Shown here: piece after piece, positions 1-35,214 of the stretch
Numbering within the stretch: position 1 is the stretch's first letter
Layout: each line of letters begins with the position of its first letter
DNA from: Amoeboaphelidium occidentale
Taxonomy: Eukaryota
NCBI GenBank assembly: GCA_023515795.1
Contig: JALGPX010000027.1
Coordinates: 1-64,000 of the forward strand
DNA length: 64,000 bases
Reading direction: 5' to 3'
Position numbers and translations under genes: made by a program
The notes under the pieces: model-generated
Database searches by the model: none
Seen by the model: only the letters and a program-made list of their open reading frames with translations
What the model was told of the DNA's origin: nothing

Positions 1-779
1 TAGGAACAGGAAACTCCTCCGGGATTCCTGTGATATGATTCCACCTGACTATGCGTATCTTCCTATCGACATCAATATTGTAGTAATTAACAAAAAGGTA
101 TTCGCCTTCACAGGCCAAAATATTAGCATAACCAAGAGTTATTTCATAAGTTTTCAACAAGTTTCCGAACAAATCAAACTTCTTGACCAAACCATCAAAA
201 CCGGCTGTGTAAACGAAAGAGCCGTTCACTTGAACATTACAGTAACTGTCATGCGCATCAAATTCCATTTCTATCCTTTTCGTTGCCATGTTGACTTTCC
301 TTACAAAGCCGGTTATTAAGCTACAGAAGACAAGGTCTAATTCAAAATGCCATGCACACACGTGACTGGTAGTACTGCTCCTTGAAGGTTTGATTTCTCT
401 TGCGATTTCTCCAGTGTCAAGATCCCATTGTTGGATTACACTGTCTGAAAAGTAGATCATCAAGTACTTGTCAACCACTTCAGCTCCGGAGATCAAGCCA
501 GTGCCATCGATCAGAGTATAAGAGGCTACAATGTAAGCTGATGAAGAAAATGAGACCTGTTATGGTTTTGACCAGAGCACCTGTATCGACATCAATGAAA
601 TGTATGTCGCTGTCCCAATAGCTGATCGACCAATTCTTATACATTCCTACCATTCGCATAGGAATATATTCAAAAGATGATTTCTTTGCAGACAGATACT
701 TCATAAAGTCATTGTCGGTACTGGAAACTGAGACCGCTGCACATATGCACAATATGATGGAGCTTAACTGAAACTTCAT
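1..779 (-). CDS. Secreted divergent WD40/beta-propeller protein, 5' part (runs off the left edge); possible divergent member of the receptor-kinase family
   Basis: Signal peptide MKFQLSSIILCICAAVSVSS. Removing a 31-nt GT-AG intron (526-556) gives an open frame to position 1 with WD-like units (SVIQQWDLDTGE, FDAHDSY..VYTAGFDGLVKKFD). Confidence 0.7.
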
Positions 780-1015: not shown

Positions 1016-1320
1016 TCAAGACATCTGATCATAACCACGAAACTTCCTGATTAAAACTTCATATGTCACGCAAGCGAAGGAGTACATATCATACTTCTTG
1101 AAATCAGTTCTAGTATAGTTCTTTGTCCAGAAGGCGGTAAATGCGTCGGGTGCGGCGCAATGAACAGAGAGTCCTCTCAAGTTGATAATATTGAACATGC
1201 GTGCAGCAACAATCGTTAAATTAAGAATTGTTACTTTATTATGATTGATTCTAGCTGTGCTTAAAAACTCAGAGTTTACAGATACAGTTTCCGATACTGT
1301 TCCACTTTTGGCTGTGTAAG
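1016..1320 (-). pseudogene. Remnant of a WD40-receptor kinase gene (kinase subdomains VIII-IX only)
   Basis: FNIINLRGLSVHCAAPDAF..TDFKKYDMYSFACVTYEVL closely matches the kinase ends of the intact paralogs. HCD/DFG are absent, and S/T-rich sequence is joined directly upstream. Confidence 0.75.
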
Positions 1321-2494: not shown

Positions 2495-3754
2495 TTATTG
2501 TCTCAATTTCATTGCTGCATAAGAAACGGTAAGCTCTTCAACAGCGTCAGGTTCTGCTCGGTTATTATTTTTTTCCAAGAACTTTCTAAACACTGGTATA
2601 AGGTAACTGTGGCTTACCCATTTGAAGTACCATTCAATAGATTCTTTCTCTTCAACACTAAAATTTACTCCATTAGGGAAGAAAACTTTAAGCACATCAT
2701 CGTCAAACATGGACAGTGTAATTCTGGGGTTAAAGGGGATCCTTCGCCTCCATTTACTATCGCTAAACACATGAGTCCACGTAAGCACCATTTTAAAAAC
2801 ATGAGCAATCTCTTGAAAGTCGTAGCGGAATCCATCCCGGAACTCTAACCTTGCGCAGGCTGCAATAAGCGACCACAAAACAATATTCTTTAGATCATTT
2901 TTTCTGTGCTCAGAGAAAAAGTCCAACATGTGCTTCCAAATTATCCACCAATCGGTTTTATACTCCGTAGACCAGTAAACAATGTTATCCAATGATTTTC
3001 CCAGCGCTTCAATATCTGTCACACGAGTCAGAACCAAATCAAGGAAATAAAACCCCTTTTCGATAGACATGACGGCCTTCGCGATGTAACGCATTACTTT
3101 TGCAGCCAGAAGAGGGCTGCAGAATTTTAAAGACTTTTCGTAGTGCATAGATTTTAAAAAGTCTAATATGTCGATATAAGGCTGGAAATCAAAGTTGTCG
3201 TTATAGTCCCATGTATTTTTTAACAATTTGCTACACCATGTATGAAATAATTCGTCCTCTAAAGAATGCCAAAACCTTGGTTTCATCAAATCAGGTAGTC
3301 CTTGCTTAAACTCCTCTATGTGTTTGTTCAAGAATTTGATCGTTTCTGGGTTTGAAAATATATCGCCTTGAAAAATTCGCCGCCAAAAAGATAGGAAACA
3401 AAGTCCGGCTCCCTCTTGTGCACAACTTGAGGTCATTTCGCCCTGTTTCCAATTGAACCACCAATCGGACCAAACCTTCACTCTAAAATATGCCGCAAAT
3501 TCTTTTTCGTCTTCCAATAGACGCTTCCAAGTTTTCTCCCAATTATCAAACTCCGACTTATGCTTAAGAAGATAAATTATACAATCATCTTGTACAAAAT
3601 TTTTCAGCCATAAAATTTCAAACGTGGTGCCTTTTAGCATGGCAGAAATAGCCGAAGAAGTATCCTTAAAACACTGCACATCCTACTCGTCAAGAAATGA
3701 ACCAATTATTTGTATAATTCCTGGTGGAAGGTCAAGAAGATTTTTTCGAGTCAT
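2495..3754 (-). pseudogene. F-box protein pseudogene 2 (N-terminal F-box plus helical body)
   Basis: ATG at 3754 gives MTRKNLLDLPPGIIQIIGSFLDE*DVQCFKDTSSAI, an F-box motif with an in-frame TAG at 3683-3685, in frame with the 394-aa ORF. Confidence 0.65.
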
Positions 3755-3849
3755 CAAGAAGAATTTTAAAGATCATTCTGTATGTGCTGACTCACTGCAT
3801 TCAGCTAAGGTGAAAGCAGGAATAAATTTTCATGATCTTTCTTTTTATA

Positions 3850-5152
3850 ATTCTAAGCGTGCCGTCGGTATCACAAAATGTATTCAGTTGGGCCTCCTCG
3901 AGATTATTTCTGCCACTTCTGGTAAGGTTTATCTCTCAAGTTTTAAAAGCTCTTCATTGTTGTAAAGTTCATCACTCGATAATAAAAACCGCTCACAAGA
4001 CCCTTAAAAATCATTTGAGCATTTCATTAAAATCTCTTTTTTCGAGAAGATAAAGGCAGTGTTTATCCAAGTAAAGCCATTCTTCGCAATATTTTTTGTG
4101 ATTGTTTCGTCCACAAGGCATAAGACAAAAATGCAATCATACGTAAGTAAATGTTTCCTCTCTAAACCTGGGATGAATGATCTCCATTTATGGGAAGACT
4201 TCAAAATATCTAAATATATCTCAATAGATTCTTCTTTAATCACAATTTCAGAGAAATTCTTGAGAAACCAAGGCATAAAACAGTCATAAAATCTCAATAC
4301 TTGTATCTTCGTTTGCCGATTATCTCTTTCAGTAAAGCGTTGTATAATTTAGCAATAGTAAAGACTGTTTAAGGTGTTGTATTTTCAATTTGCCTGCCAA
4401 TGATTCCAAGTCTTGCACTATCGTGTAAATGTGATATAAAGTAATTGAGGCGCTGAAGAACTTCGTCACAATCAATTACAACCGTGGAAACATTTCTAAA
4501 CATGAAGATAACCATTTTATACACTACTTCTTCATGAATACGTAAATAACTGTTCTTTTTCGCGAACTCCAATACTTCTAGCCAGCTTTTTAACTCTTCT
4601 ACATTCTAAAATGAATAGCAACTCATACTCAAAAAATGTATAAAATCACAGGACAAAAGATCCTCAAAAGAGTGCTATTAATTTGTTTTTGCTAAGTCTA
4701 GATTATCCGCTCTTAGTTTGAAGATTTCTTTTTCTACATAGCCGATTGTGTTTGTTTCGCGAGTCTTAAAAAGTTTCCGGCAAAGCTCAGTAAATATTCT
4801 CCTCTGCTGTAAAACGGGCCGTTCTTTGTCGCATCCCGTCAAAGGATAATTGAAGATATCTTTTTCATAAAGATTATACTCCTTTTTCTCATAGAATCTC
4901 TGGGCAAATACATAGTTATCATCGTACAATCTCGAGATAAGCTCTTTCCAGCATGGAATCTGTTCGCGATGATAGTAAATCATCCTTATGGCGTTATAAT
5001 TATAGTATTTTTAAGTAATCATAATAGAACGAAATATCTGAGGTTATCGTGTTTATCACAGCGTTTGATTTCTGAAAGAGACACAGATAATCAAAGTCAA
5101 GATTCTGAGCAATAATTCGTATGATCTCCGGAGAAAGACTCAAGAGGGACAT
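3850..5152 (-). pseudogene. F-box protein pseudogene 1
   Basis: MSLLSLSPEIIRIIAQNLDFDYLCLFQKSN F-box motif, then a frameshift near 5005 into ...CWKELISRLY, several in-frame TAA/TAG stops (4675-4680, ~4607, 4369) and further frameshifts. The 3' end is approximate. Confidence 0.65.
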
Positions 5153-5220
5153 ATTCTGAAATGCTACTGGAAAGAAAAAGGTTTGAAATCGGTGAATCAT
5201 TGTTCTAATTGACCTTAATT

Positions 5221-8200
5221 TTAGTTCCATGGCATTCTTTGCTTAAGAAGTTCATAAATGACGCAAGCATATGAGTAGATATCGTATTTCTTGAAGTCCG
5301 CGCCAACATAGTTCTTTCTCCTGAAGTTCACAAATGATTCTGGCGCTGCGTAATGAACAGATAGACCACGAATGTTAATAACATTAAACGCCGTTGTCGC
5401 AATGATCTGGTCGGACAGTATCTGCGTGATTCCAAAATCAGTCAGGTAGCAAAAGAGAAGGTTTCCTTCGAGACGGATCAGAATATTTTGAGGCTTCAGA
5501 TCACAGTGAGCCAGGTAAAGACTGTGCATCACTTTCAATGCTTCGGAGATGTCCTTCATAGCCTTCAAAACAGCTCCCGATCCAAAACTATTCGCTTTTA
5601 TCCAGTCATGTAACGAGCCATCGGGATAATATTTTAGGATAATCGATAAAGGTTTCTCTGTGTAACCAACTATTGAGCAAAAATGAGGAAACGTGTTCAA
5701 CATAATCATGATTCCAACTTCTTGATAGAATGCGTCTTCTAATGACTTTGAGGTAGTTAAGATAATTTTCTGAACTACAACTTCTCCAAACTTTGCCCGA
5801 AGCGAAGCGTCCATTATCTTTGCAATATATAACTCGCCTCCTCCACCTTGAGTAATTTTTTTGACTTTGGCTATGAACGAAGCGTCAATCAAGTATGCAG
5901 CATGTTTTGATATTCCGATTACGGTATTAATGACAGTTTCTAGGTCAGAAATCATGTTGGTCTGACTCGCCTGTGAGCTTGCAATCAAAGAATCGGCCAT
6001 CCCCTTGTCTTTCGATCTGTTCAAAAGAAAGTAACATACAAGACTACCGGCAATCACTGCAGACAGAGCGATGATAATATATGTAATGATCAAGCCAATG
6101 CTGGAGTTAGTATTATCAAAAAGCAGCCTTTTTACCGCCTTCGTCCTTTTAGTAGCGGCATTTCGTAGGGTTGATTTAGTAACTAACCCAAACGAGAAGG
6201 GTTCTGAGGGAAGATTTGGGTTGAACACAAGAACCGAAAAATCTTCACTTCCAGCAAAAACAGAGTTGTTGTAGCATAGAACAGATGTTACAGGTTTTGA
6301 GAAGCCAAAATAAACATCTTCGTGTTTTCCTGTTGGAATGTTCCAACGTCGCACGGATAAGTCTGCACCAACGGAAAACAAAGTACCAGAACAAAAGGAG
6401 ACTGAATAAACACGACCTAAATGACCCAAAGCTGTAGCTGATATTCTTTTGTACACTTTAATTAAATTTCTTGTGTTCAAAGACCACTCAATGATCGTTT
6501 TGTCATCAGAAGTGGAGAAGAAGTGCTCATTAACAACCAACAGACTATTTACCTGAGAAACATGACCTTTTAGCTGAAAATACGGACGTTTGGTATCCAA
6601 ACTCCAAGTGTAAACAGCTCCCGATCTGGATCCTGCAATAATTTCATACTCTGTGACGGCAACACATGTTAAAGGAGCTTGTGAATCTGCGATTTTTGTC
6701 GGGATAAATTCATCATTCCAGGAAATAGAAATCAAAGTGCTTTCATCCTCGATAGCCACTAGAAAAATACTATTCAAAGCAAATCCTCTTATAGTTCCTG
6801 ATCTCGATTTCTGCAAAAGAGAGAAATCTTCTGTATTGTTGAGGGAAAACTCCATAATCAATCCATCAAGTCCAGAAGAAATTATGGAATCCTCGGTGAC
6901 TTGCAAAGTTGTCACATCCTTTTCATGCGCATTCAAAGTCTTCGTGAGTAGTGCAGATTCAATATTATAGATCAAAATCGTTCCTCTCCGTACTCCGACG
7001 AAGAGAAGATTTCCGTGGGCAGCCAATGTTGTCACAGAACTGTTTCTGTCCTCAAACGAAAAGGCTATCTTTCTGGTGGCTAAATTCCATTTCTTGATAG
7101 AACCATCGAAACCTGTTGAGTACATTACAAATAACTCATCAAAACATATAGAGTAGATAATGTCTAGATGGCCCTGATATGTTTCAAGAATTTGAAGTGT
7201 CGTGGGGTCTCTTGATCTGATTATGCTATCCGAATGCCCAGAAACAACACGATTCCTATTTGCAGTAATACAGAGGCAGGATATCGGCTCTAGATATTAA
7301 TCATGCAAAGTGAAAGCTTACCTCTAAGATAACCTATTTTTTCTTGAGATTCAACCGAGAATGCCTCCAAACCGCCACCAGTACATGAGATGATTGAATT
7401 TTGTTTTATCAGAATCGCAAAGACGTTATACAAAGCTGAGAGTTTAACGGATACAAAAAAACTTACTGTTGAAAACACCAATACTATCCTGAGTGGTGAC
7501 CTTCCAAGCTCGAATTGATTTATCGTTCGATCCAGAGTATAAAGTCTCCTCATTTAGAAAAACGGATTCCACAAAACTGGTATGTCCTTCAAAAACCATA
7601 TTTTGACTGCCAGAAACGATGTCCCATTGATAAATTGTTTCTTCATAACCACCAGCGTACAAGAATAATTGATCTGCTGCAATGCTTAGTATTGCACTCT
7701 TTGGACCTAAACGTCAATATCAAATGAATCTAGTACAGTACCTGTATACTTTCGGACAAACTGGAAATTGGGAAGCTCCCACTGATCTGCTGTTAAATCA
7801 GCACTTCCAGAGAAAAGACTGTTATTATACACAAAAAGACAACTTATTGGCCGAGATGCATTTGCAATTGTTGTTATGGGGTTCACACTGTCAAACGAAG
7901 CATCCCACATTCTGATTTCAGCATCTTCGCCTCCACTAATGACAAAGTTTGTCCAAGTAACAACTGCTCTGTTTTTCCTGCTGCGTCCAGAGTAAGTGAA
8001 CAACGGCTCTCCTGTGACTATATCCCATCTTATAGCAGTAGTATCAAAGGATCCCGAGAATAGTTCTCGCCCCACAACTGTAAGACTTTTTATGGCATTG
8101 TTATGAACATCAGGAAAACGGGTAAGTATCTGACCATTACTTATATTCCACTTCAAAATTCCTCGTTGTGCTCCTGCAGAATAAAGTTCTTCTCCGACAA

Positions 8201-8969
8201 CTAGAACCGCATAGATTCCGCCTTCGTGTCCTATGAAAATTCTGATTATGTCACCAGTGTTCACATTCCAGTAGATAATTGTAGCATCAGCAGAGCCAGA
8301 GAAGAGCATATATTGGTAAACATCGATTGCAACCACAGTATTTGTGTGCCCAACAAACGATAAATCAATTTCGCCAGTTGTAGCGACAAGTTTCAAAGCA
8401 TGTGGCGAATTTTGCTTTCCAATGTACAAGAAGTCTCCTCTTGCTACAATGCTTGAAATTTTACCATTGATATCTTTATCAAGTAAATGATCGATAAAAG
8501 CAGTGTGGTTACCTATTCGTTGGACAATTCGTCCCGAGACTAAGTCGACTTGCCTCACATTTGTATCTTCACCAGCGGTAAATAATTGATCATCTCGCAC
8601 AGAAATGCTTTGGACATAAGTACCTGATGATCTCAACCAGATCCTCTTCAAGATCGAGCCATAGTCTAGACTCCAAACGATGATCATATCATCATAGGCG
8701 GACGTTATCATTCTGGAATCATTAGTTACCACAAATGAGTTAACTATGTTCTCATGCGCTCTAAATGTTCTTTGTACCATTCCAGTTGAGATATCTTTCT
8801 GAATAATATCGTTTGAAGCTGTCAAGAGTAGCGAATCCTTGTAGACCACAACTGTATACACATTAGAAGCTCCATCTGGTAGAAGAAAGCTTTTATCATG
8901 CTCAAGGCCCAGGACCATGCATCCAAAGATAGCAGCCAACAGACATGTAAGTAGGTCGATAAGATTCAT
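5221..8969 (-). CDS. WD40-ectodomain receptor-like kinase A (~1203 aa; SP-WD40xn-TM-non-RD kinase)
   Basis: Signal peptide MNLIDLLTCLLAAIFGCMVLG, many GH..WD units, TM IGLIITYIIIALSAVIAGSLVCYFLL, and kinase motifs GGGG/VQK/FYQE/HCDLKPQN/DFG/APE. GT-AG introns at 8474-8512, 7707-7741, 7436-7466 and 7290-7321 give a 3612-nt CDS. Confidence 0.9.
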
Positions 8970-9241
8970 AACAAAGTTGTAAAGTTGAAACAAGAGCTGT
9001 TTGGCCGCAATCCGTTTAAAAGTTCGCCGAGGCCATCGCATCAACACAAAATAAATAAACCGTGTATTTAATTCAAAGTGCTTTGATGATCAGTACAAGT
9101 GGCTTACCGCGTCTGAGCTTTATCAAGAGGTTTTGGTAACGAAATGGGACAGACGAGTAGATCTCACTGATAAAGTTCGTCATATAAAGATACTAAAATT
9201 TATTCACTAACTCATAAAACATTCAGTTTAAACAGAGCTGA

Positions 9242-9761
9242 TTAACGGTGAGTCCAAACCCAGCCGTTAGTTGAAGCTTTTCTTGCCAAAATACTGTACT
9301 TGCCTTCCTTGTCTGGACACTTTTCCATGACTTCTCTTCCTGGAGGCACAGGTCTTCCTTCTAGCTTTCTCAAGCGCTCAAAGAAATCATAGGCACAATA
9401 ATAAACTTCGCTCTTAGCACCCTGGTATCCACCTTTATTTTCCAACAAGTTCATGAGAGCACGTGGAGTGAATCTTAATTCTTTCGCGAACGCAGTTCTA
9501 GTTGTAACATTTAGATGCTTGTGCAGAAAATCAAAAATCAATTTACGAACATCATCGCAGTTTAAATAAAACATCATTTGACTCTCGTCATATAATTCAT
9601 CCTCTGGCCAACTTGGTTCCTGAGCAGCAATCTGATCCAATAACTTTGTATAAGCAGCCTTTGCAGCAGGATCATTCTTTTTTTGGTTGTGCCGTTGAGG
9701 ATGAACCATTGCCACTCTCAACAGGACCACCAAGCGACGACTTTAAATTCTTCTTTGCCAT
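9242..9761 (-). CDS. DUF7726-like protein of unknown function, with an apparent 1-nt frameshift near the 5' end
   Basis: Motif series YLNCDDVRKLI..T.TAFAKEL..LLENKG..GAKSEVYYCAYDFFERLR.LEG.P. A natural-looking start MAKKNLKSS at 9761 joins the ORF only through an indel in an A7 run (9678-9684). Confidence 0.55.
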
Positions 9762-10584
9762 CTACCAACGCATGAAGAACGGAGCACCTTTTTCATACAC
9801 GCCATTCTCAACACCCCGCTTTGCACCGCGATAAGACATGAAACGACCGTATGAATTAGAATTGACACTAAGAAATGTTGGAGGTTCATTCAAAAATCTC
9901 TCATGGTGATACTAATAAATAAGTCAAGGAATCCTCTATTGAACCCGCGAGGCGACGAATCTGATATTTTACCGAGAGTTACACGAAGATCTGCTGAACG
10001 GGTATAAAAGACCAGCAGCTTAAATAATTTACTAAATAACCTGAGAATTATGTTGAAGATAATAAGATTTAACTGTTTCTGGGTCCCGTATCACTATTGT
10101 CGCAATGCAATTGGTTGTTATATTGTGTAATTAAAGTTTCAATTACTGGACATATTCCAGCAGGATGATCGCGTATTGGCGTTCATGGAAGATGCTGCCT
10201 TGTTTGAACCGTTATCGATGGTTGATCTTGCGGCATCATCTTCTTAAATCAGTGAAGTAACAGTTGTGAGAGGTCTGAACCGTTTGGGTACATGAAGGAT
10301 TGTACATCAGATCAAGGTTGACAACTTCTTTTAGATAAGCTTGAACCTTGTGCTTGACGACTAGTTGATAATAGAAACCTTTAACAGTATTAAGAACTAT
10401 TAAAGTCAGTTTGAGGACTAGCATCTTAACTTTTGAGAGCTGAAACACCTCCCAAAGTATACTGTCCTAGACCAAGCGCTTAATGACGGTGATTATAGTC
10501 TTTTTGACAACGCTGTGAGCGGTCTCGGATGGGTCAGCGACTTAACAGACCCAGAGGAAGAGCATGAAGAACTTTTTGATCCTC

Positions 10585-11147
10585 AATTACTTGTTACGCC
10601 AGAACTTCAAGAAGTTTTAGATTCTGAAATAAGCGACAACCCTTATTTAGAAGACACTTTACTCTGAAATGAAGACAACAGAGTAGCTCACGGGGAGGTT
10701 TCATCAACTACAGATCTTTCCCTCCATCCTCCATGATCCAACTGATCGGACGAGGTACCGTGATACACTGCTCAACCATAGTGTTTTAGTGCGGTGGTCT
10801 CAAGAGATACACCGATTTTTCACTATACCCTTTAATCCTCAATGGACGCCAATGTGGCACCACACAGATAGGGGAGTTTTTCGATATTTATCTCCCTCCT
10901 CCAATCGAGGTTCTATACTGTGTCTTCACAGTAGTCGCGCTGGACGGTTACTGAGGTGAAGCTGTGAGAGGTTTACAGTTGTCTAAAGCGATCTATAGGA
11001 CGCATTCAATTTGGTTTTTACTCCAGGACTGATATGGTGAACCGGACCAAAGGACGGCCATCGTGTTCGCAGCAATGTTGGAATTGGCACTTATTCATAA
11101 TGTATATTTATTCAATAGACAACTATACGCCCCTAAACCCTAACCCT
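10585..11147 (+). mobile_element. Copy 2 of the structured element, ending CCCTAAACCCTAACCCT
   Basis: Homologous to 1840-2392. It is preceded by a decayed plus-strand frame ending ...NPYLEDTLL* at 10667, and terminates in telomeric C-strand repeats at 11131-11147. Confidence 0.6.
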
Positions 11148-12256
11148 TTCACGATGTTTGTGCATCTAATCTCATGGTACACCTCCATTGTCGCTCATTC
11201 AGGCTGTTCTAAGCGATGAAACTCTTAAGAACCACTTGATTGACTTGTTTCAACGTCTTTCAACGCGTTTGAGGCATCATCACAGATGCAAGGATAGTCT
11301 AAGCCTCCTGCCGTTTTGCGCCATGCGTTAAAACTTGCTCAAATTAGAATGATTTTGAGATGGTATGCTTTCGATTCTATTTAACCGTGTGTCTCCATTA
11401 TCGGTATCCAATTTTACACTCTTTGACCTTCTGCGTATAATTATAGCTTTCAACTTTCTCTTAACTATGACGGTCATGTTGAGTGCTTTATCGAACTTTA
11501 ATGTTTGTTTCAGCTTCATTAGTCTGATCTTTTGTGTAAACCGTAAATCATAGTTTGGCTGAGGTTGTGAAACTATTCAGAATAGAAGAGATTCTCAGCG
11601 AAATCCCATGAACAGTTGCTGGCTAGATATTATTCAATTCGCCGGAAGTACTAATGTGATATCGGCACCCGATAAAGAGTTATTCTTTTAATGCTACGAT
11701 TCCGGCATATAATTTCAATCCAGTTCGGACCAGTCAGGACTTGGTTTTGATTATTAATCTCCCACTTCCTAGAAGAGCCTCGATCAAGCCTTTATCTAAA
11801 TATTCGACTTTAAGAATCCGCGTGAAAAGAGAAGTATATGAGAATACTGTCTAAAGATAATGAAACTATGGCATTCTTGCTCGTTTTAATCTAGAACAAG
11901 GATTGAAAAACGGCAACTACATGCTCATCAATTGTATTAAGCATAAAAACGTCAAAAGAGACCAGAACAGATGTATTTTGAGTCAAATCAATGGTAGTAG
12001 TGGTCTGTGGTGTATCTGAGTCAATTATAATGATATATGACATTATTTAATATATAATGACTAATTTTTGTTTTCTGACGGGAAGAAAACCAACTTTTAC
12101 AACCAAAGTTTTCATGTCATATCCAACAGGTTCTCGCTAAGATATAGTTGCAGGCTCTTCATTAACATGTGAGAAATAAACCCTATTTACTTCTTTGAGG
12201 TATAAATACGGAGCCACATCCATTTTATTGTAATTAAACCACCGAATAACATCTTT

Positions 12257-15200
12257 CTAGTCCCATGGCGATCGTTTAGCCAAGACTTCAAACATAATGC
12301 AAGATAGAGAGTAGATATCATACTTCTTGAAATCAGCTCTACCAAACTTTTTTGACCTAAAGTTTTCGAAAGCTTCTGGTGAGGCGTAATGAACAGAGAG
12401 ACCCCTCAGATTGATCACATGGAACGACTTTGTTGCAATGATCTTCTCAGAAAGAACTTGTGTTATTCCAAAGTCAGTCATGAAACATGTTGGAACACCC
12501 CTTTCAATCTGCACTAAAACATTTTGACTCTTTATATCGCAGTGAGCCAAATAATGGGAATGCATTGTGTTCAGAGCTGAAGATATTTCTCTCAAGATTT
12601 TGACAGTTGTTCTCAAGCTTAAGTGATTCTTACGCAACCATTCATTCAAGGAACCATCGGGATAGTATGCCAATATCATGGACAGAGGGTTTTCTGTGTA
12701 TCCGAGTATTTTGCAAAAGTTTGGAAACGTAGACAGCATGATCATGATTCCGACTTCTTGATAAAATGCATCTTCAAAGGGCTTACTCTTTGCAAATATA
12801 ACCTTTTGTACAACAATATCTCCCAATTTTGCTCTTAAAGCGGCATCCATGGTCTTGGCAAGATAAATTTCTCCTCCGCCGCCTGCTGCCAACTTCTTGA
12901 TCTTTGCAATGTATGAGCTGTCTATGAGATAAGCGGCGTGCATTGAGATTCCCATGACACTGTTGATAATGGTTTCCAAGTCAGTGACTGTCTGACTTGA
13001 ATCAGTTTTATGAGCAAAAACTGCTGGCGATGACTTATCACCGCTCCTTTTCTTTCTGCTAAAAAAGAACAAGGTCACGCAACATGAAATCAAAATTGCG
13101 ACTGAAACAGTGATGTATATGATCGCTTGACGATTCTGCATCAACGATTCTGTTGACAGAAAGCTGGCACGTATCACTGTCCTTCTTTGCCTTTGACCCA
13201 ACTTAGATGTTGTTAAAGTACCACGAGAAACAATGTTTACGTCTTTGAGGTCGGTTTTGAACAAAAATACAGTAGAATCTTCACTCCCTGTCAGAACTGA
13301 ATCATTATAGCAAAGAACGGATGTAACTGGTTTGAAATGACCGACCATTATGTCTTGGTGTCTTCCTGTCTCTATGTTCCATCTACGCGTAACCAGATCT
13401 GAACCTCCAGAAAACAGAGCCCCTCTACAAATTGCCAAAGAATTAACAGGGCCCAGATGACCAAGGTTAAAATTCGAGGTTCTTTGGAACGCTCTCACAA
13501 ATTGTCTCCCAGGAAGCGACCATTGCATAATTGTCATATCTTCTGATGCAGAGAATAACATGTCATTATAAGCAATCAAATGATTAACCTGGAACGTGTG
13601 TTTGTTCAAAACAAAAGCCAAAGTGTATGTCCTAAGATCCCAAGCAAAAATATTTCCGGATTTTGATCCTGAAATAATAAGGGCCTCGGTAGCAGTAAGG
13701 GTTTTTAACGGCTCAGATGCGTAAATTGTGTTTTGTGATGTCAAGTTTCCGTCTCGAGGCCAAATTACAACTTCAGTATCCCTAGTCAGCGAAATCAAAC
13801 TATTGGAAGCCAACGTGAGGCTTTGAAGCGGAGATGCTGAATCAAACAGAACTCTAGAATTCATGATTTCATTTCCTGCAAACCTTAACAACTTGCCGTC
13901 CATTCCAGAAGAAAAGACAATATCGTCCTTGATGGCTATGGAAGAAACAGCACCACGATGTAAATCAATAGTGCCAAATAGAGTCGTGTCATTTAAATTG
14001 AAGCATCTGATATCACCAACCATCGTACCGACAAGAAGAAAGCTTTTGTGAAGCGCAAGTGTAGTTACTGAACTATTTCGGTCTTCGAAGGAGAAAGCCA
14101 CTGTTCGAGATGCCATATTCCATTTCTTGATAACACCGTCATAACTGCATGAGAACAAAATAAAGTTTTCATCGAAGGCTATCGAATGTACACCATCTTC
14201 ATGACCTGAATACGTCTCCAAGATTTCCAGAGTTGCGGAATCTCTGGATCTGATCTGATGATTGACATGACCGCTAAACAAGCGAGTTCCTCTTATAGCC
14301 ACGCAATTGCACCCAGCGCTTTCTGCACAATTAAAGAAAAGCTTAATGAGAAATACCTCCTCGATTTACAACCGTCGCACCTGTAAATACATCGAACATG
14401 GCTATTCCGCGGCTTGTTCCGACAACCAAGAAATTTTCAAACGTTACCGTTGAGAAGATGAGATCGATTGCTAAACTTTAGATCATAACAAATCAGGTAC
14501 CGTCAACTGATCGTACAAACTGAAGATCATCTTTAGACCAAAGCTGTACGATCCCATCCTCTGATCCGGAAAAAATAAAGTCGTTATTATGTTTGATCTC
14601 AACGATGGTGCCTTGATGGACACCGAATCTTGCTGCAATAACACCGGTTGATATATTCCAGCTCACAAGGATTCCATCATATCCGCCAGAGTAAAGAACA
14701 CCATCAGTAAATAGAAGCGCACGTATGGTATCTAGATTACCTAAACCTTAAGCCGTATTAAAGACAAACGCTTACTTCTAAAAATCATTGTACAGATCAA
14801 TTGTGTCAGGTTCCATTGTCGGATTGTTTGGTCACTGCTTCCCGAGAACAACAGGTTTTCGTGAAGATGTAAACTTTCTATCTCTGAAACATGATCAGTT
14901 AGAACGGCGTATGGGAGATAATTGTTCGAGGAAATATCCAAGAGCCGAATAGTGGATTCTTCTCCGCTGCTAATCATTGTGTTTTTCCACAAAACGGAAT
15001 TTAATGTTCTTTTTAAGCGGCTCCTATATGTAAAGTCCGGGAAATGGCCTGTCAAAGGCGTTCGTTTGATAACTGTATCGCTTGAACCAGAAAAAAGCGT
15101 ATCAGAATTCACTGCCAAACTAATTACAATATCAAGATGAGAAGGCAGAAATATTTTCCACTTAAGCCCATTTTCAGTTCTCCAGGAGTAAATATTTTTA

Positions 15201-15967
15201 TCTGTACCAGCAACGAATAGAATGTCATTCGCCACCAGCATAAAGTAAGCAAATCCAAAGTAATCTAAGTACCGAGTAATAATTTCACCAGTGTCTACGT
15301 TCCAGGAAAAAATATTTTTGTCAGTTGAAGCAGAATACAATGAGTTTTTGTAGAACTCCAATGCGTTGATTGCACCGGTATGGCCATCAAAGTTCATATC
15401 CAGCAACATGTTTGAGGTTCGATATTTCTCTAATTGTCTTGTCCTGGAAGCTTTCCCAACATACAGAAAGTTCCTATTCACAATAACCTTTTGAACTTCA
15501 ACTCCCAGAGCAATTGTTCTAGCTGTGCTTGCTCCAGAGAGATCAATTTTTCTTAGCTTCTGATCTGTTCCACCAGCAAAGACAAAATCATTCTGGTAAG
15601 AAATACTTATGATCGCATTCGAAGAAGTTTCAAGTTTAATTCTTCTGATCACAGAGCCAGTCTTTACGTTCCACACAATCAAGGTGCAATCCAGTGAGAC
15701 AGTGATCATTCTGTCATCGTTGGTCAACAGAATTGAAGTCACAATCGACGAATGCGCTCTAAAGTTTCTTTGAACAGCACCTGTAGCAATATCTTTCTGA
15801 ACAATATCATTTGCTGATGTCAGCAACAAAGAGTTTTGGTACAGTGCGATGTAGAACGCAGAGGCAGCAGTTTCTTTCAGCAAGAAGCTCTTTTCATGTT
15901 CAAGACCAAAGGGAGTGAGAGACAGAAGTGTGGTGAATAGACAAATGGTCCAGGGTAAAAGATTCAT
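12257..15967 (-). CDS. WD40-ectodomain receptor-like kinase B (~1203 aa)
   Basis: SP MNLLPWTICLFTTLLSLTPFG followed by LEHEKSF, WD40 repeats, TM AIIYITVSVAILISCCVTLFFF, and HCDIKSQN/DFG/SPE. Introns at 14741-14775, 14471-14500 and 14323-14356 give a 3612-nt CDS. Confidence 0.9.
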
Positions 15968-16547
15968 GTCAGCAGGTTGAATATGAAACAAGAGTAGCAA
16001 TAGCCTTGTTTGATGCTGTCTCGGAGCAATGTTCAAACTAACCATCACGAGTTTGCCAGCAATAATATTGTTGATTTTATCGCGCAGAGCTCCAGCTCAA
16101 GCGTCTACATGCTGCGAGCTGGAGTGCGAATGGGCTTTCTTAAAGGGGGTATATCTAGCTCGCTCTGAACCCTGCAATCTTATGTTCCTTCTGTTTACAT
16201 GAGTTGAAACAGACAAAGTTTTGGGTGCTTAAAGTCTGTAATTTAGATTGCTTAACTGTTTGGAACAGGGACATTAACGCTGTACGAAATATCAGACACG
16301 TTTTCTTGGATTTGAATGCAAATGGTGGTAAAAGGCCTCTTGCGTTCTCCAGGAAGAATCGTGCATGATGTTTCGTCAGCTAACTGCAAATTTAATTGGT
16401 GGAGAAAGGTGATTATGCTTCCACAGTCTCCGCCAGCGTAGCCGAGAAATCGGCGATTCGTGTAACGCTCTTCTAAGTAAGATTTGGTTTTATTTGAAAT
16501 AATCCTGTAGCGAAGGGCCAGTTATTATAAAGAAGTACAAATAACGT

Positions 16548-19500
16548 TTAGCTCCATGGAGTTTTCTTTGCGAGTACTTCAAAAGCAACACAACCAAGCG
16601 AGTAGAGATCATGCGCCTTGTAATTGACCCTTCCGTGCGATTTTGAAGCGAAATATTTAAACGACTCTGGTGCAGCGTAGTATATAGATAAACCTCTCAG
16701 GTTAACGACATTGAACAACTTGGAAGCCAAAACTCGATCAGATAAAACTTGAGTAATACCAAAATCTGTCAAGAAGCAGGAAAGTACTCCATTAGAGTTC
16801 TTTACCAAAACATTCTGCGTTTTCAAGTCACAATGAGCCAAGTGATGATTGTGCATGGTCTCTATAGCTTTTGCGATTTCTTTTAAACATTTTAAACCAT
16901 TAGGAGTGCTAACTTGTTTCGACCTAAGCCATTCATAAAGTGATCCATCGGCATAGTACTTAAGAACAATCGAAAGCGGTTTCTCAGTATACCCGATAAT
17001 CTGACAGAAATGAGAAAATGTCGATAGCATAATCATTATTCCGACTTCTTGATAGAAAGCGTCTTGTGCGCTTTTGCTTTTGACGAAGACAACCTTTTGT
17101 ATTACCAACAAACCCGCTTTCTTGGCTAACAGTGGATCCATAATTTTAACCAGAAAAAGCTCACCTCCACCGCCAGTTGCGATTTTCTTAACCGTCGCCA
17201 ATACGGAACCGTCAAGAAGAAACGCTGCATGCTTAGAAATTCCCATTATAGAATTGACAACAGTATCCAAGTCAGTGAAAGTCGTGCTGCTATATTTCTC
17301 TGATGTTAAAGCGGTTGGGCTTGATGACCCTGATATTCTGATTCTGAAGAACAGGCAGCCAAAAAGGATCAAAATAATAACAAATGCAGTCCCTGCAAGA
17401 GCTACAACTAAACCAATACTCACAGTGAAATTTGCAACTGACACTTGTTTGACTTTAATAACTTTTTTTCTGATGTTACCGTCGGTACCAATGAGTGTTC
17501 TAGTTAAGCTGTAAGAATTGGATTGTTCCGGAAGAAAAGGCTTGAAAGACAGGACGCTAAAGTCTTCACTTCCTGCATAAACAGAGCCATTGTAGCAAAC
17601 GACTGCGGTGAAAGGTTTTGAGGCGCCAAAGTAGACGTCTTCATGATTACCAGAAGTTGGGTTCCATCTTCGAATAGTTCTATCAGCACCAGCAGAGAAA
17701 AGAACATCTTGACACATTGATAGTGAATTAACTGGACCTAAGTGCCCAAGAGCCGTTGATGAATATCGCTTGAATACTTTGACTGATTCTCTGTCTTTCA
17801 ATGACCATTTTACAATTGTATTATCATCTGATGCAGAAAAAACTCCATCGTTTTCAGCTAAAATCATATTGACCTCCGCATTGTGTCCGTCAAGTTGAAA
17901 ATCAAACTCAAGCGAGACGAGGCTCCAGACAATTATTTTGCCTGTTTTAGAACCAGCCATTAGGTACACGTCATTGGAGGTAATGCAAGACAAAGGTTCA
18001 ACTGCAGAGACGCTTTTGACAATTTCATATGTGAACAAATTGATAATTTCAATTACTTCTTTGCCATTCAAAACAAACAAACTATTATTGCGAATTGCTA
18101 AATCTAGTAATGGATGATTAGCAGAAACTAACGGACTAGAAATCTGAATATTATTTTGAAGCTCTGACCGAAAGAGCATTCCATCAGAGCCAGTTGAATA
18201 AATCCAATCCCTTTCAACAAGCAGTCTTGAAACTGTCTTGTTGTGGATTTGACTGGACGATATTACTCTCGATGTCGACATGTCAAAAACATTAATGATC
18301 CCATCTCGTTGACCCACAAAAAGTGTTTTCCCTAAAGATATCATTGAAGTAACAGAGCTTCTCCTATTCTCAAAAGAATATGCTGTTCTTCTGGTTGCCA
18401 TGTTCCATTTGATTATAGAACCGTCAAAACTTGCGGAAAATAAGATTTCTTTTTCGTCATAAAAAAGGGAATATACGACATTAGAATGCCCCCTAAAAAT
18501 CTCTATCGTACTTAAATAGTTTAGATCTCTTGCTCTAATCAGACCATCTAAATGCCCACTGTAAACGCGAGAGGAACCTGCTGCTAAGCAAAGGCAGATG
18601 TAATCCTCTCTAATATCAGCGATGGTTGAGCCACTATATGTTGAAAACAGTTGGAGTCCTACTTGTGAGCAAGAAACAAGTGAGTCTTCTCGAAGCAGTA
18701 GAGCTGCAGTTGATTCCGGAACTAGAATGTTAATGCTTTCTGCTGAAGAAAAAACCGTCATAGAAACGTGTCAGTTGCGCTGAAGATTTTGACCATTGAA
18801 GAATTGCAAGATCATCGGAACCAGAAAAAACGAAATCTCGAGATGCTACAAGGGCGTTGATCCGATACTGCGCACCTTCAAATGTCCCAACTTGTTCTCC
18901 TGACGTGATGATCCATTGCCTAATGATCAGGTCTGGACCTCCCGAGTAAAGGAAATCATCACTAGCCACTAAAGCAGTTACAATATTTGTGTGCCCTAAA
19001 ATTCAGTCAGGCTAATGAACGATGATGAAAATACCGCTTAATGCTCTAATTCTTGTGACATCTGTCAAATTCCATTGAGCTATCGTGGTATCAGAGCTGG
19101 AAGAAAAGAGGTAATCTTGATGAACCAGAAGGTTAGTAATAGAACTTTGATGACCGAGGAGTACTCTAACAGGTTCTAAGCTGTTAATTGAAACATCCCA
19201 AATTCGGATTTCTGAATCATCACTGCCGCTCATAGCGTAGCTTTTCCAAACAACCACAGATCTGAGTTTTGTATTAATACCTTTGAAAGACTTCATCGGC
19301 AGACCGGATGATATGTTCCACTGAAGCACAGTGGTATCATCCGATCCGGAGAAAAGAGCTTGTCCTCCGAACCACAAGCATTGAATCCTATTCGAATGTG
19401 ATTTTGAAAACACTTTCATGATCTGCCCATCATTGATGTTCCACTTGATAATTCTTAGATCCCAGCCACCAGAATAGAGTTCACCCTCATGATCGATAAT

Positions 19501-20260
19501 TGCAAGCACACTCAAAGAATGGCCTTGATATCTTTTCATGATTTCGCCAGTATCAGTGTTCCAGCTTATAATATCCATTACACTACATGATGCCAATAGA
19601 ATGTTACCAATTAAGTGCATAGCAGTAACAGAGCTTTCACAACCGCCAAACGCCATAATTTGTCTAAATGATGAAGTTGCGATCTTTTCCAATGGAGCGA
19701 CTGAAGCCCATTTCCCTACGTATACACTATCGCCACTTACTAAAATCTTTGAAACTCTAACGGAAAAATCTATAGAATTTAACCCAAGTTATTTGTAAAA
19801 TACCTCTTGACCTAACAACCCTTCCTGTAACCAAGTCTAAATGCCTGATTTTGCCATCGTCACCTCCTGAGTAAACTTGGCCACCTTGTAAAGATAATCC
19901 TTTGACCAAAGTACCCGTTGATCCCAACCAGATCCGCTTTAGGATCGCACCTGATTCCAAACTCCAAACGATAATCATATCATCCGACGCTGATGTTATC
20001 ATTCTGGAGTCATTTGTGACTACAAATGCCGAGATCAAATTTGTATGAGCCCTGAAAGTCCTCTGTATTGCACCTGTTTCAATGTCTTTCTCAACAATGT
20101 CGTTGGAAGATGTCAAGAGTAAGGATTCCCTATGCACACTGATCGAGTAAACTACAGCAGCAGCATCATGTACTAAGAAACTCTTCTCATGATCGAGCAA
20201 AGAGGATAGATGTAGCATCGTAGCTATCAGCAGCCATATTCCTAAGTCTGCATGAAACAT
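16548..20260 (-). CDS. WD40-ectodomain receptor-like kinase C (~1201 aa)
   Basis: SP MFHADLGIWLLIATMLHLSS followed by LDHEKSF, WD40 repeats, TM IGLVVALAGTAFVIILILFGCLFF, and HCDLKTQN/DFG/APE. Introns at 19770-19803, 18996-19034 and 18722-18755 give a 3606-nt CDS. Confidence 0.9.
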
Positions 20261-20587: not shown

Positions 20588-23362
20588 TTACAAGATTGGT
20601 ACACCATAGACTTTGAAATCATCAATTCTTCCATACAACATCGTATTAGTTCCCGAGTTAATAGCGCCAACGTAGAAATCATTATTGCCAGGATTAATTC
20701 CAGTTGCTATACGTTAAACAAGAAAGCTTCAAAATTTACCTGATATTGTTGTCTGCGCAACTACTACACAATTCCAAGCCAATTTAATCGTGGTTCCGGT
20801 CGTTGTCGGTGTATAAGAAGCAGTGATACGAACCCACTGGTCCAAGTAACAATCATCCGGAATATTGTAACTGATAGTTGTAATTGGTCTTGTTCCACTT
20901 GCAGACTTAATACTAAAGGACAATGTATTCTTGACAAATCTCAAATAAACTTGGTCATTTCCAGTCCATTTTGTGAATAATGCATCTTCTGCTGTAATAC
21001 CATATCTCATCACAAGCATATCGACTCCAAAACCGTTGGTGAATTGGAATGTCCCAGATCCTGGAACAGTAAAGAATGTATCTACGTCATTGAAATTCAG
21101 AGCAGTTCCAGTGAAACCAGAAACCAAACCACTCTTGAAGTTGATATTTCCTGATAACGAAGAACCCATCAAATTGGGAATTTTACCAAGAGCGTAAGCT
21201 GCTGCATCATTGAAGTCATATGAAATTATTGGAGCTGCTGCTGGAGTTGTTGTTAGAGCAAGACATGGACTAGATTTTGAACAAGGGCAGTTTGGACAAG
21301 CAGGTACTGTTGGACCGATATTAACTTGGAAGACCCCAACGTCATTTTTGATAGATACAGCAATAACTGAACCATAAATAACACCACTTGGATTATTCAA
21401 AACAGCATTTGGAGCAAATAAACCACCTCTTATACCGACATTCACCGCATTTACAACTGTAGCATCACAAGTCAACCATTCAACAGGAATATTAGCCAGG
21501 GCCTCCATGTCCATTCCGGAAAAGCTAACTGTTGCGCCACCAATCATAATTACAATTAACTTGTGGAAAGACGGTTTGTAATTCACAAGAGGTGAAATAG
21601 ACTTAACATAAGCCCAATCTGCCGGGTCGATAACAACAATCTCAATCGGATTAACGCCAGTTAGAGTAATAGTCAAGACACCACTGTAAGCTCCTGAGAT
21701 TGAATAGAAAGTTCCTGTTGGAGGGTACGATTTGAATAAGGCACACGTACCTTTCAATTTAACAAATACATTGGCAAAATCAAGGTATTTCGGAATAACT
21801 TTTACGGAACAAGATGGATTCAAAATACCACTGTTAATAGTACTCCCTGTTGCTCCAACAACAATATCACCATTATAATTATTTCCGCTTCCCCAAGTAA
21901 TGGTTTTGCCTGCCACAACATCAACAACAGAACACGGTGGATTAATACCAAGTTTATCCCCTACAGAAAATCCGTTGCCAAGCTTAACAGTCCCGCCTGC
22001 AGCAAGAGCTCCTTCAATGTCTCCTGTACCAGCAGTGTAATCACCAAAAAGGAACACGGAATAATTTAATGCAGGACCCTTGTCTATACATGGAGTTAGA
22101 TCAGTTGGTGGATAAACAGGCAATGTCTTGTTCATTGAAAAGCAAATGCCTGGGCAAGGTGGCAACGCTGGACTGACATTAATTTGAACGGAACCATTCA
22201 TGAAATGAGCGTAAACATTGCCAACAATCAAACCACTAGTATTAATAATATCAGCATCAGGAGCCAAGATGTTTCCATTCACTTGAATATCTTTTATCGT
22301 CATCAAAGTTGCATCGCATGCTAGCCAAACAACGTTATAACCCAAAAGAGCTGTCATTTCAACAGAAATAAAATCAACTTTTGTGCCACGTAGCTTAAAT
22401 ACAATAGTTTGAGGTGATGAACTAGGTATTAAAGAGATGGTGTCGATTGTCTTGACCAGCAACCAATCTGAGGGAGAAATATCAACTATTTGTACAGGAT
22501 CATTCGTAAAGAACTTCACTTGCAAAAGACCACCAGACGCAATAGAATAGGAAGTTGTAGCAGGCAATGAAAAGAATTGTGAACATGTGCTACGTAGACA
22601 ATTTCTGGCTTGAACAAAATCCAAGTAATCAGGGTCGTACACAATTTGGCAGCCAGGATCAATTCCTGTATAACGAGGATACGGCAACTTTTGGACAATA
22701 GCACTACCACCAAACGTTCTACCGTATTCCCAGCCAGAGATTTTTCCGCCAAAGACAATATCAAATACGGGTGCAGTTGGAGAGCATGGAGGAGTGATAC
22801 CAAGTTTGAAACCAACTGAAAAGTATGACATCAAATAAGCATCACCTCCAATTGCAACAGAACCTTCAACATCCGGACCACTGTAGTAATCTCCACTCAA
22901 AAACAAGTTGAACTCTCCAACATCACCAAAGCCAATACATGTTGGAACAGGTGTGCTGGTTGTTGTCGTAATTGCAGTAGTTGTGGTTACTTGAGTACTT
23001 GTTGTAATTGCCGTGGTGGTGGTCACTTGGGTACTTGTTGTAATTGTGGATGTAGTTGTGGGATCTGTACATGTATAACTGGTTAATGTGGTGAAAACGG
23101 TTGAAGTCGTAGGGCAGATAGTTGTAACAGTCGTTGTAACAGTTCCGGTGACAAAAACAGTTGATCTTGAAGAAGGAGTTGGGATAGCCTCTGGAGAATC
23201 CGGAGCAACAGTGGTAAAAAGCGCTGCGGATGTTTCATGTGGGCCAGCATGTCTTCTTTCTCTTTGAGTCAAATTATCACCAAAAGAGCCTTCATAATTC
23301 AAATAGAGCTGAAATAAAACCAAAACAGCTGCAACAAGAAAGGCTTGAGACACTAAAGACAT
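20588..23362 (-). CDS. Secreted/surface protein: Thr-rich linker, two choice-of-anchor-A (ice-binding-like) domains, C-terminal LamG-like domain
   Basis: Hydrophobic N-terminus and TTSTQVTTTTAI repeats. Two domains carry the F(N/S)xFxxGD..D(V/I)EG..A.GG..FSVG and G..(L/F)AP.A motifs. Intron 20707-20739 completes a LamG-type end, FYVGA..LYGRIDDFKVY. Confidence 0.75.
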
Positions 23363-23438
23363 TGTTAACTAAGTTTTAGTTTTTGCTTGGGAAAATGAAA
23401 CGGTCAGCGCCCGGCCAACAACATCTTTCTTGTTTGAC

Positions 23439-25014: not shown

Positions 25015-25126
25015 ATTAAAGTAGTAGAAATCGGGTCAGTAAGATACGAATAAACGGTTGAGTGGTATTTTCGGGATCGATTCGAGTAACGCGTTTGAAA
25101 ATTGAATATAACGGACTAAGCTTGCT

Positions 25127-25328
25127 CACCCTGTAAAGATAATTATTTGATCAAAGTACCAGTTGAGCTCAGCCGTATCCGCTTCTGGATCGAACCCTTG
25201 TGCACACTGATCGAGCAAACAACAGCAGCTGCATCATGTGCTACGAAGCTCTTTTAGTGATCGAGCAAGAAAGATAGGCGTGAAATTGTAGCTAACAGTA
25301 GCCGTGTATTAAAAGTTACCTGAAACAT
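25127..25328 (-). pseudogene. Internally deleted 5' fragment of a kinase-C-like gene
   Basis: 25200-25328 aligns with 20131-20260 and 25127-25197 aligns with ~19882-19952, so ~180 bp is deleted. HEKS is mutated to H*KS. Confidence 0.8.
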
Positions 25329-25589
25329 TTAGAAGATTTGATCAATGAAAAGCCCAATATTTCAAATCCTGTATCTGAAGTATGTGGTATGATACATCTT
25401 CAATGGCTTCATTTGCTTTTAAATACTGGTTATGACACGTTTTTGACGGGAATAGTTTAGCCTGCTACAACAAGAAACAGTTCCGTCTCCCATTTGCGCT
25501 GGATACATTGCCGGAGGAGATCCGCAGATCATCATGTGGCTTTAAACCTTTTTCACAAAAACTTTCTCTCACTTTTCTCAAAATCGATA

Positions 25590-31691: not shown

Positions 31692-31754
31692 ATAGAGAGA
31701 TTTTCGTTTTTTTTTCACAATCAATCAATCAATCAGTCAACACGGAACACTGAA

Positions 31755-32312
31755 ATGGATCCAATACCTCCAGATTTTCTACAATTACTTTTATCGTGTA
31801 ATAACAATAATAAAGACCTCCACTTCAAGTTGACTCTATTGAATACAACCATAAAAGAATTCAAAGATAAAAACACAAAGAAAGCAATACAATTATGTTC
31901 AGAAGTATTGTTGGGATTACAACAAATACAAGGACCTTCTTCCTTCTTCCTAAAAGATTTGATTTCAGTTAGTGGAGTAGAGTTTAATGACGCGAGAATA
32001 TTGTTGGAAGCATCTCTGCATCTTTACATTGCAAAACTTTATTCTTGCAGCAGCAGTAATCCATCATCAAAAGAATCGCATCTATTGCAGTGTCAGCAGC
32101 TGCTGCTACTACTACTACTACGAAAAAGCAATACTACTACTACTACTATTACTACTACTACTACTACTACTACTTCTGAAGAATCTTTATTAAAACAACA
32201 ACAACTTCGTAAAGAACTTCGTAAAGAATGCATTATGGAATTGGCTCAAGTTTATAAACTAAAAGGAAATGAACATTTATACAATCTTACAATGCGCCAA
32301 TTATTACAATAA
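31755..32312 (+). CDS. Hypothetical helical protein with poly-T/L/Q tracts
   Basis: 185-aa ORF with an ATG start, lying between neighbouring genes; no family recognised. Confidence 0.5.
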   Translation: MDPIPPDFLQLLLSCNNNNKDLHFKLTLLNTTIKEFKDKNTKKAIQLCSEVLLGLQQIQGPSSFFLKDLISVSGVEFNDARILLEASLHLYIAKLYSCSSSNPSSKESHLLQCQQLLLLLLLRKSNTTTTTITTTTTTTTSEESLLKQQQLRKELRKECIMELAQVYKLKGNEHLYNLTMRQLLQ

Positions 32313-32425
32313 TACTTGATAATATTTTGAAGAAGAATTGAATTTTAACCTCTTGAATGGTAACTTAGAGTCTAATTGTTGTTTGAAATAAATAACGTAT
32401 TCTCCTCCTGCCACCACTGAATCTC

Positions 32426-32462
<37 letters not shown>

Positions 32463-32982: not shown

Positions 32983-33027
<45 letters not shown>

Positions 33028-33320
33028 GAACAATACTTTAAAATCCTTTTGTACATAATAGAAGCGGGAAGTAGAAGTAGAAACCAAATCTTCAAACGAT
33101 TCATTTAAATTCTTAGCAGCAGTTCCAGTTCCAGTTCCAGTTCCAGTTGTTGTCGAATCATAGTAATACTCTCTTTTGTTCTGAAGTGTTTGAACCAATT
33201 GAGATAGAATACTCCTACTTGTTCCTTTACTAACAATTCTTAATTCTTCAACAAAAACCAAATCCAATAATTTCAAGAATTTCAAATCACCAAGAAGGAA
33301 TAGATGATCCTTGTAAGATA

Positions 33321-33353
<33 letters not shown>

Positions 33354-33476: not shown

Positions 33477-33512
<36 letters not shown>

Positions 33513-33644: not shown

Positions 33645-33676
<32 letters not shown>

Positions 33677-35183: not shown

Positions 35184-35214
<31 letters not shown>

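Follow-up and report, generated by a model that had tools for sequence, protein, structure and literature searches.

The receptor locus

The first 64,000 nucleotides of contig JALGPX010000027.1 from the aphelid Amoeboaphelidium occidentale (assembly GCA_023515795.1), a stretch referred to here as the window, harbor three intact receptor paralogs, g1, g2 and g3, all encoded on the minus strand. Each encodes, in order, a hydrophobic leader, a WD40 ectodomain, one transmembrane helix and a kinase. The gene models were built by splicing out GT..AG introns of 30-39 nucleotides (nt) each, which gives products of 1203, 1203 and 1201 residues with frames that are open from ATG to stop, and the three proteins share 40-43% identity. 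An earlier note on this DNA had described three co-oriented intact paralogs of 1201-1203 residues, which the spliced open frames bear out. It took the Dikarya as its comparison, although the organism is an aphelid and not a dikaryan fungus, and it overlooked what is the most unusual feature of the family, namely that the kinase is without the GHI subdomain throughout.

The 10 introns of g1-g3 are all in phase 1 and fall at four homologous positions (residues 152, 396/397, 476/477 and 514/515). Both g1 and g2 are annotated at NCBI as hypothetical proteins, and no annotated copy of g3 was seen in the protein searches made here. The g2 model is identical to MP638_005391 over 1203/1203 residues, the NCBI version having 26 more residues from an upstream ATG. 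The g1 protein, matched at 100%, is MP638_005392 except for the first intron, an in-frame segment of 39 nt that is retained in the NCBI model. This intron is probably spliced out, because the corresponding 13-residue insert is found in 0/15 of the other full-length proteins aligned and the homologous site of g3 is also interrupted by an intron. Traces of further receptors are also found in the window, in the form of the start of a probable fourth gene, a kinase-tail remnant and a decayed g3-like 5' end (Table 1), and these sequences indicate birth and death of genes at the locus.

Table 1. Receptor genes, their domains and receptor remnants in the window
Feature	Position	Strand	Remarks
g1 (MP638_005392)	5221..8969	-	1203 aa; introns 8512-8474, 7741-7707, 7466-7436, 7321-7290
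g1 predicted signal peptide, aa 1-21	8907..8969	-	from hydropathy and common mature start; putative cleavage
g1 WD40 ectodomain, aa 22-870	6223..8906	-	21 predicted blades; conserved Cys814/Cys853, sequon N855
g1 transmembrane helix, aa 912-937	6022..6099	-	
g1 kinase, aa 984-1203	5224..5883	-	VVQK, QE, HCDLKPQN, DFG, APE, Arg1171 (APE+6), helix F, PW, stop; no GHI
g2 (MP638_005391)	12257..15967	-	1203 aa; introns 14775-14741, 14500-14471, 14356-14323
g2 ectodomain	15904-13259	-	
g2 transmembrane helix	13123-13061	-	
g2 kinase	12260..12919	-	no GHI; non-RD (HCDIKSQN); C-terminal PWD
g3	16548..20260	-	1201 aa; introns 19803-19770, 19034-18996, 18755-18722
g3 ectodomain	20197-17544	-	
g3 transmembrane helix	17417-17349	-	
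g3 kinase	16551..17210	-	no GHI; non-RD (HCDLKTQN); C-terminal PWS; APE+6 is Ala, not Arg
5' part of probable fourth receptor, divergent WD40 subfamily	1..779	-	40-53% to MP638_001374 and relatives; runs past window edge, kinase outside view
Orphan kinase-tail remnant (activation segment to helix F)	1019..1285	-	upstream part absent
Decayed remnant of g3-like 5' end	25114..25342	-	~78% identical at the nucleotide level; disrupted by stops and a deletion

The kinase stops after helix F

The Pkinase model is 263 positions long, and the kinase of g1-g3 matches it over positions 1-198 only. The stop codon (TAA, TAG and TAA in g1, g2 and g3, respectively) lies one residue past a PW motif that follows helix F, and the same end is shared by the family: in an alignment of g1-g3 with 67 of 78 family matches, from which 11 duplicates, partial or misassembled sequences were omitted, 70/70 members end 0-6 residues past the PW column. 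Helix F is likewise the last helix in an AlphaFold2 model of the kinase (pLDDT 83.1). The model superposes on BRAF 448-657 with a Z-score of 22.1 and a root-mean-square deviation (rmsd) of 1.9 over 199 aligned residues of 270, and also on Src 257-464 and EGFR 696-916, all three with Z 21-22 and rmsd 1.9-2.7 over part of the chains only. The top structural matches, BRAF, KIT, Lyn and CTR1, lie within 1 Z unit of each other.

When all six frames were searched with a profile of the GHI segment, neither the window nor a related locus, L001, gave a match (best E 0.83), and the same profile does detect the subdomain in five close relatives that retain it. In the 12 nt before each of the g1-g3 stops there is no GT donor, only GC, AATAAA lies downstream of two of the three stops, and the reading frames 3' of the stops are neither kinase-like nor conserved. 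The GHI subdomain is truly absent from the g1-g3 kinases and the truncation is real. According to PMC3415842, this subdomain and the ion pair that it forms with the APE Glu (Glu208-Arg280) are defining features of all eukaryotic protein kinases and are needed for efficient catalysis, and protein kinase A (PKA) is strongly impaired by the loss of either residue.

Catalytic residues and the activation segment

Residues were counted over 122 GHI-less representatives from a wide profile search. The alphaC Glu, the His and Asp of HxD, the catalytic-loop Lys and the DFG Asp are each present in all 122, the catalytic-loop Asn and the beta3 Lys in 121, and the APE Glu in 114. The activation segment is extended, ends in APE and is of fixed length, with 26 residues in 104/112. 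These counts suggest that the catalytic machinery of the GHI-less kinases is under constraint. The catalytic loop of the g1-g3 family is of the Ser/Thr type (DxKxxN) and non-RD, the residue at the Arg position being Cys in 67 and Ser in 3 of the 70 aligned members, and Cys in 92, Ser in 10, Asn in 9 and Ala in 6 of the 122. The glycine loop has an unusual GGGG, and in the clade of the window genes beta3 reads V[IV]QK.

Helix F of ordinary kinases has a Gly that packs on helix H. It is retained in just 48/116 GHI-less kinases versus 31/34 that bear GHI, a difference suggesting that positions that pack on the subdomain relax once it is gone. Six residues beyond APE (APE+6), an Arg or Lys is found in 104/122 GHI-less kinases versus 0/5 of the close GHI-bearing relatives (Fisher p 1.3e-4, the best of 876 tests, with rows that are related and not independent).

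Ectodomain and membrane topology

Pfam places WD40 families across the first 870 residues and Pkinase at the C-terminus (E 1e-25 to 4e-24), and one transmembrane segment, at residues ~912-937, lies between ectodomain and kinase in 16/16 full-length proteins. The last WD40 repeats, the transmembrane helix and the kinase are found in one exon, the last, as they are in the NCBI models, and the WD40 and kinase parts are therefore not separate genes. The domain combination described earlier is upheld by Pfam, hydropathy and this single last exon, and the idea of WD40 and kinase as separate units is excluded at the level of the gene.

The full-length fold was approached through an AlphaFold2 model of a homologue, P0054 (MP638_005244, 41% identical to g2), made with a 63-row alignment (mean pLDDT 84.8, pTM 0.58). 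The model has 84 strands between the leader and the stalk, which corresponds to 21 four-stranded blades. The earlier proposal of ~21 repeats in three seven-bladed propellers is recovered in the number of blades, and their closure as three seven-bladed rings is a putative arrangement. The best Foldseek matches of the full-length model are Trm734, Utp12/WDR3, Gemin5 and Nostoc 2ymu (E 1e-33 to 1e-26), which are multi-propeller WD40 proteins but intracellular, with neither a transmembrane segment nor a kinase. The TM-scores of the multi-propeller matches are low, at 0.15-0.27 of the query, so that these proteins do not reproduce how the propellers are arranged.

Conservation along the ectodomain is uneven. 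Averaged over 16 full-length proteins, identity is high in blades 1-2 (0.63 and 0.55), blade 14 (0.54) and blades 19-21 (0.47-0.70); it falls to 0.21-0.25 in blades 4, 12 and 17, and is 0.60 in the kinase. The conserved ends, the divergent middle and the conserved juxtamembrane block are thus as first described. The Cys814/Cys853 pair is present in 49/60 rows that cover both columns, and the N-glycosylation sequon at N855 is kept in 15/16 full-length proteins.

The N-terminal leader of g1-g3 and their intact homologues comprises 19-22 hydrophobic residues, followed by a conserved L[ED]H[ED]KSF start, and forms a helix over residues 3-16 in the P0054 model. On hydropathy and this common mature start it is predicted to be a signal peptide and is presumably cleaved; of the signal peptide proposed earlier, the leader and the shared start are seen directly. 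Lys and Arg are richer after the transmembrane segment than before it in 15/16 proteins and equal in one, a positive-inside pattern consistent with the type I topology predicted for the g1-g3 receptors.

Family spread and evolution

A search from the kinase side returned 90 proteins, 78 of which are family-like, and at least 33 WD40-type and at least 3 Kelch-type MP638 gene models are found, some of them partial or fused, in agreement with the expanded receptor family proposed earlier. An apparent tandem kinase in MP638_005364 is an exact internal duplication, and is probably an assembly error. The wide profile search covered 1.84 billion cluster representatives and gave 853 matches at E up to 1e-30. 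The best 150 of these 853 were classed as 9 multi-kinase proteins, 11 fragments and 130 complete single-kinase proteins, and of the last group 125 are without GHI, 114 ending within 15 residues, and the subdomain is present in the other 5. Among 20 representatives that were looked up, 7 are proteins from the transcriptome set of Paraphelidium tribonemae; six of these terminate at helix F or a little beyond, and one stops inside it. Seven further Paraphelidium isoforms behave similarly, 5 ending at or shortly after helix F and 2 being shorter.

The same kinase is attached to a variety of ectodomains. Of 39 long proteins that were scanned, 13 have Kelch, 8 WD40-like (two with cysteine-rich repeats) and 2 NHL ectodomains, and 16 have no Pfam match. 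The intronless locus L001 (P0097) encodes a 1739-residue receptor with a repetitive, beta-rich ectodomain that has no Pfam match and with the same GHI-less kinase end. Varied ectodomains on one kinase module are, as judged from these sequences, the pattern of a sensor family.

A further set of loci, L004 and L006-L014, comes from an AT-rich (26% GC), intron-rich eukaryote with expanded, related RD receptor kinases that have a full GHI subdomain; some members of this set have EGF-like cysteine patterns. In these loci GHI lies on a separate exon beyond an intron past PW. This may give a picture of the ancestral gene, from which GHI could have been lost by loss of the last exon.

In a quick tree, g1, g2 and g3 fall in different subclades amid other A. 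occidentale genes, which makes the array one of old paralogs. Pairs resembling orthologues are still recognizable when A. occidentale is compared with metagenome sequences. The trees require 3 changes in GHI, with the 5 GHI-bearing relatives nested inside, but a test on 39 rows does not reject one clade of all GHI-less kinases (p-AU 0.153). Three or four plant kinases fall outside a starred aphelid clade in trees with thin sampling and long branches. Because the kinase retains a long, APE-containing activation segment and is structurally closest to TK/TKL kinases, the loss of GHI is a secondary one within a eukaryotic protein kinase.

Relation to known systems

Mikhailov et al. 2022 (doi 10.1016/j.cub.2022.08.071) reportedly describe a 'conspicuous expansion' of aphelid receptor-like kinases. 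The organism is the same and the genes are very probably the same as g1-g3. PMC10608142, citing that work, also states that aphelid and fungal sets of receptor-like kinases differ. The family as such is thus probably already known, and the label of undescribed system given to it in the earlier note is too strong. A literature search that did not reach Mikhailov et al. 2022 found no description of WD40 receptor kinases of aphelids or of a GHI-less receptor kinase family, and WD40 is not mentioned in the accessible portion of PMC10406608. What makes these receptors interesting is less the WD40 ectodomain than a kinase that is cut short and nevertheless conserved in its catalytic residues.

Kinases of the plant RLK/Pelle family, in particular the non-RD members FLS2, EFR and XA21, resemble g1-g3 in having a signal peptide (a predicted one in g1-g3), a variable ectodomain, one transmembrane segment, a non-RD Ser/Thr-type kinase and large expansions, and depend on partners such as BAK1 (PMC3426755). 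However, they retain GHI (P0083, P0084, P0090), fall outside the aphelid clade in the thinly sampled trees and have leucine-rich repeat ectodomains instead of WD40. CRINKLY4/ACR4 sets a precedent for receptor kinases with an extracellular WD40 domain, its seven-bladed extracellular propeller being called WD40 (bioRxiv 10.1101/2020.08.10.245050). In contrast to the 21 canonical WD40 blades and few cysteines of g1-g3, CRINKLY4/ACR4 has one disulfide-stabilised propeller and a cysteine-rich domain.

Minimal kinases without GHI are known, and include Bud32/PRPK, NleH and OspG. The eukaryotic-like kinases (ELKs) are also without the subdomain, as described in PMC3415842, but have a short activation segment, whereas the g1-g3 family keeps a long one with APE and has its best structural matches among TK/TKL kinases. 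Neither an ELK nor a minimal kinase is found among the top 50 rows of a wide structure search, and the ESM Atlas gives generic kinase clusters only.

More than 100 divergent clusters that lack GHI but have the catalytic residues offer a ready test of the minimal working eukaryotic kinase, in a class of enzymes of which GHI is regarded as a hallmark. They also represent a receptor kinase repertoire that is built around propellers and is distinct from both the RLKs of plants and the receptor tyrosine kinases of animals, and provide concrete candidates for host recognition by aphelids, which are parasitoids of algae and form the sister group of fungi.

Proposed mechanism and alternatives

Our preferred reading, held at about even odds, is that these proteins are ligand-sensing receptors with a minimal non-RD kinase that is catalytically competent but dependent on a partner. 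The predicted triple WD40 propeller would bind a cue from outside the cell, for which the algal host is the most likely source. The GHI-less kinase would still bind ATP and transfer phosphate, but only once ligand had joined the receptor to a partner kinase. In ordinary kinases GHI docks substrates and, by way of the APE Glu-Arg pair, keeps the activation segment in place. Here the partner, whether another receptor chain or a co-receptor with a kinase of full length, might cover the exposed face of helices E and F and supply substrate docking, in a role likened to that of BAK1 for plant non-RD receptors, and the Arg or Lys at APE+6 might act as a compensating contact. Blades 1-2, 14 and 19-21 could form a structural or receptor-receptor contact core, with the variable blades providing specificity. 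Plant non-RD receptors generally need partner proteins (PMC3426755), and aphelids are described as parasitoids of algae (PMC10608142); the host-sensing role is suggested by this life style and by analogy. More tentatively, and with our judgment leaning against it, the family may be a large, ancient and so far undescribed class of receptor kinases that are active without GHI, one of two elements by which eukaryotic protein kinases are said to be defined, and in which a new Arg after APE and ligand-driven receptor pairing replace the lost helices, and in which swapped propellers (triple WD40, Kelch, NHL) read algal surfaces.

A number of observations weigh against the proposal of competent, ligand-sensing receptor kinases. 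By analogy with PKA, where loss of Glu208 or Arg280 is so damaging, a kinase without GHI may be inactive. The beta3 register depends on the alignment: over 64 main-clade rows, the Lys column is filled by Gln in two alignments and by Lys in two others. Scoring on the flanks only favors Lys in 55/63, by a margin of just 1.7-4.0 bits for g1-g3, and the Lys is probably kept, the Gln reading arising from a one-residue register shift with an insertion before the conserved Gly. At APE+6, g3 has Ala, a basic residue occurs also in sequences of the L001 type, and Lys is found in three more distant GHI-bearing loci of the AT-rich set (L007, L008 and L014), and the residue is no more than a candidate marker of GHI-less members. 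The count of 125 may be too high, because some of these proteins are gene calls on metagenome DNA that could end at an intron of the kind seen past PW in L004 and L006-L014. N-glycosylation sequons are depleted relative to shuffled sequences (93 versus 126), and the sequon count does not support heavy glycosylation. Finally, dS is saturated or undefined in 15/15 comparisons of dN/dS (the ratio of nonsynonymous to synonymous rates) between paralogs, and positive selection is not demonstrable. Partial ectodomains outpace kinase divergence in 13/15 pairs and are about equal to it in the closest ones, and the earlier description of the family as diversifying thus holds for the middle blades of old paralogs but not for rates in recent pairs.

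The main rival is that of a pseudokinase, which would bind nucleotide without itself transferring phosphate, and would regulate a partner that is active by serving it as an allosteric or scaffolding switch. We consider this possible, although we do not favor it. Without GHI there is no equivalent of Arg280, important in PKA, Val or Ile replaces the Ala two residues ahead of the beta3 Lys, the main clade may have exchanged that Lys for Gln, and the glycine loop is the unusual GGGG. Pseudokinases, however, usually lose one or more catalytic residues, and here the catalytic Asp, Lys and Asn, the DFG Asp and the alphaC Glu are near-invariant over 122 clusters that are >50% different. The APE Glu, the hydrophobic face of helix F and PW are for the most part retained, as if they were still packed against, which would fit a split kinase whose C-lobe is completed in trans by a separately encoded GHI-like polypeptide, but no GHI-like frame is found in the 64 kb around g1-g3 and the Gly on which helix H would pack is relaxed, making this explanation unlikely. 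It is highly improbable that the kinase only seems to be truncated, owing to a terminal exon that was overlooked, to read-through of the stop or to an altered genetic code. The separate GHI exon of L004 and L006-L014 speaks for a missed exon, and the stops of g1-g3, TAA and TAG, are read as Gln in another aphelid. Against this, the sequence around the stops has neither a donor nor kinase-like frames beyond, AATAAA follows two of them, frames in the window run for up to 1420 codons free of TAA and TAG, and both the NCBI models and the transcript-derived Paraphelidium proteins share the same end.

The receptors may instead serve as immune-like or self/non-self sensors, or as adhesion or nutrient sensors of the feeding stage, rather than as host sensors, an alternative that we hold to be rather doubtful. 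The non-RD loop resembles that of plant pattern-recognition receptors, the two remnants in the window are signs of birth and death, and NB-ARC/NACHT-type proteins are among the closest WD40 matches outside the aphelids, with an identity of 21-29% that may reflect no more than similarity between repeats. On the other hand, the paralogs are old, orthologue-like pairs persist, and the ectodomain does not change fast in close pairs.

Neighboring genes

Directly upstream of g3, at 20732-23368 on the minus strand, lies a gene for a secreted protein of 879 residues, possibly an adhesin, which combines a Thr-rich stalk with two adhesive domains of ice-binding-like type (PF20597, E 2.5e-62). Head to head with it, at 23587-25011 on the plus strand, is a gene with a DUF4215 cysteine-rich repeat. 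A DUF7726 gene (PF24852; 9242-9742, minus strand) sits between g1 and g2. Several frames at 2498-5200 on the minus strand have no Pfam match where scanned (395 residues at 2498-3682) and are possibly degenerate paralogs. A degenerate repeat occurs in two copies, at 1934-2392 and 10682-11136, that are 72% identical and each near a receptor gene; it is possibly a transposon remnant. The region at ~31700-37300 is AT-rich and of low complexity, with poly-Thr and poly-Asn frames, N gaps and local duplications, and is probably misassembled.

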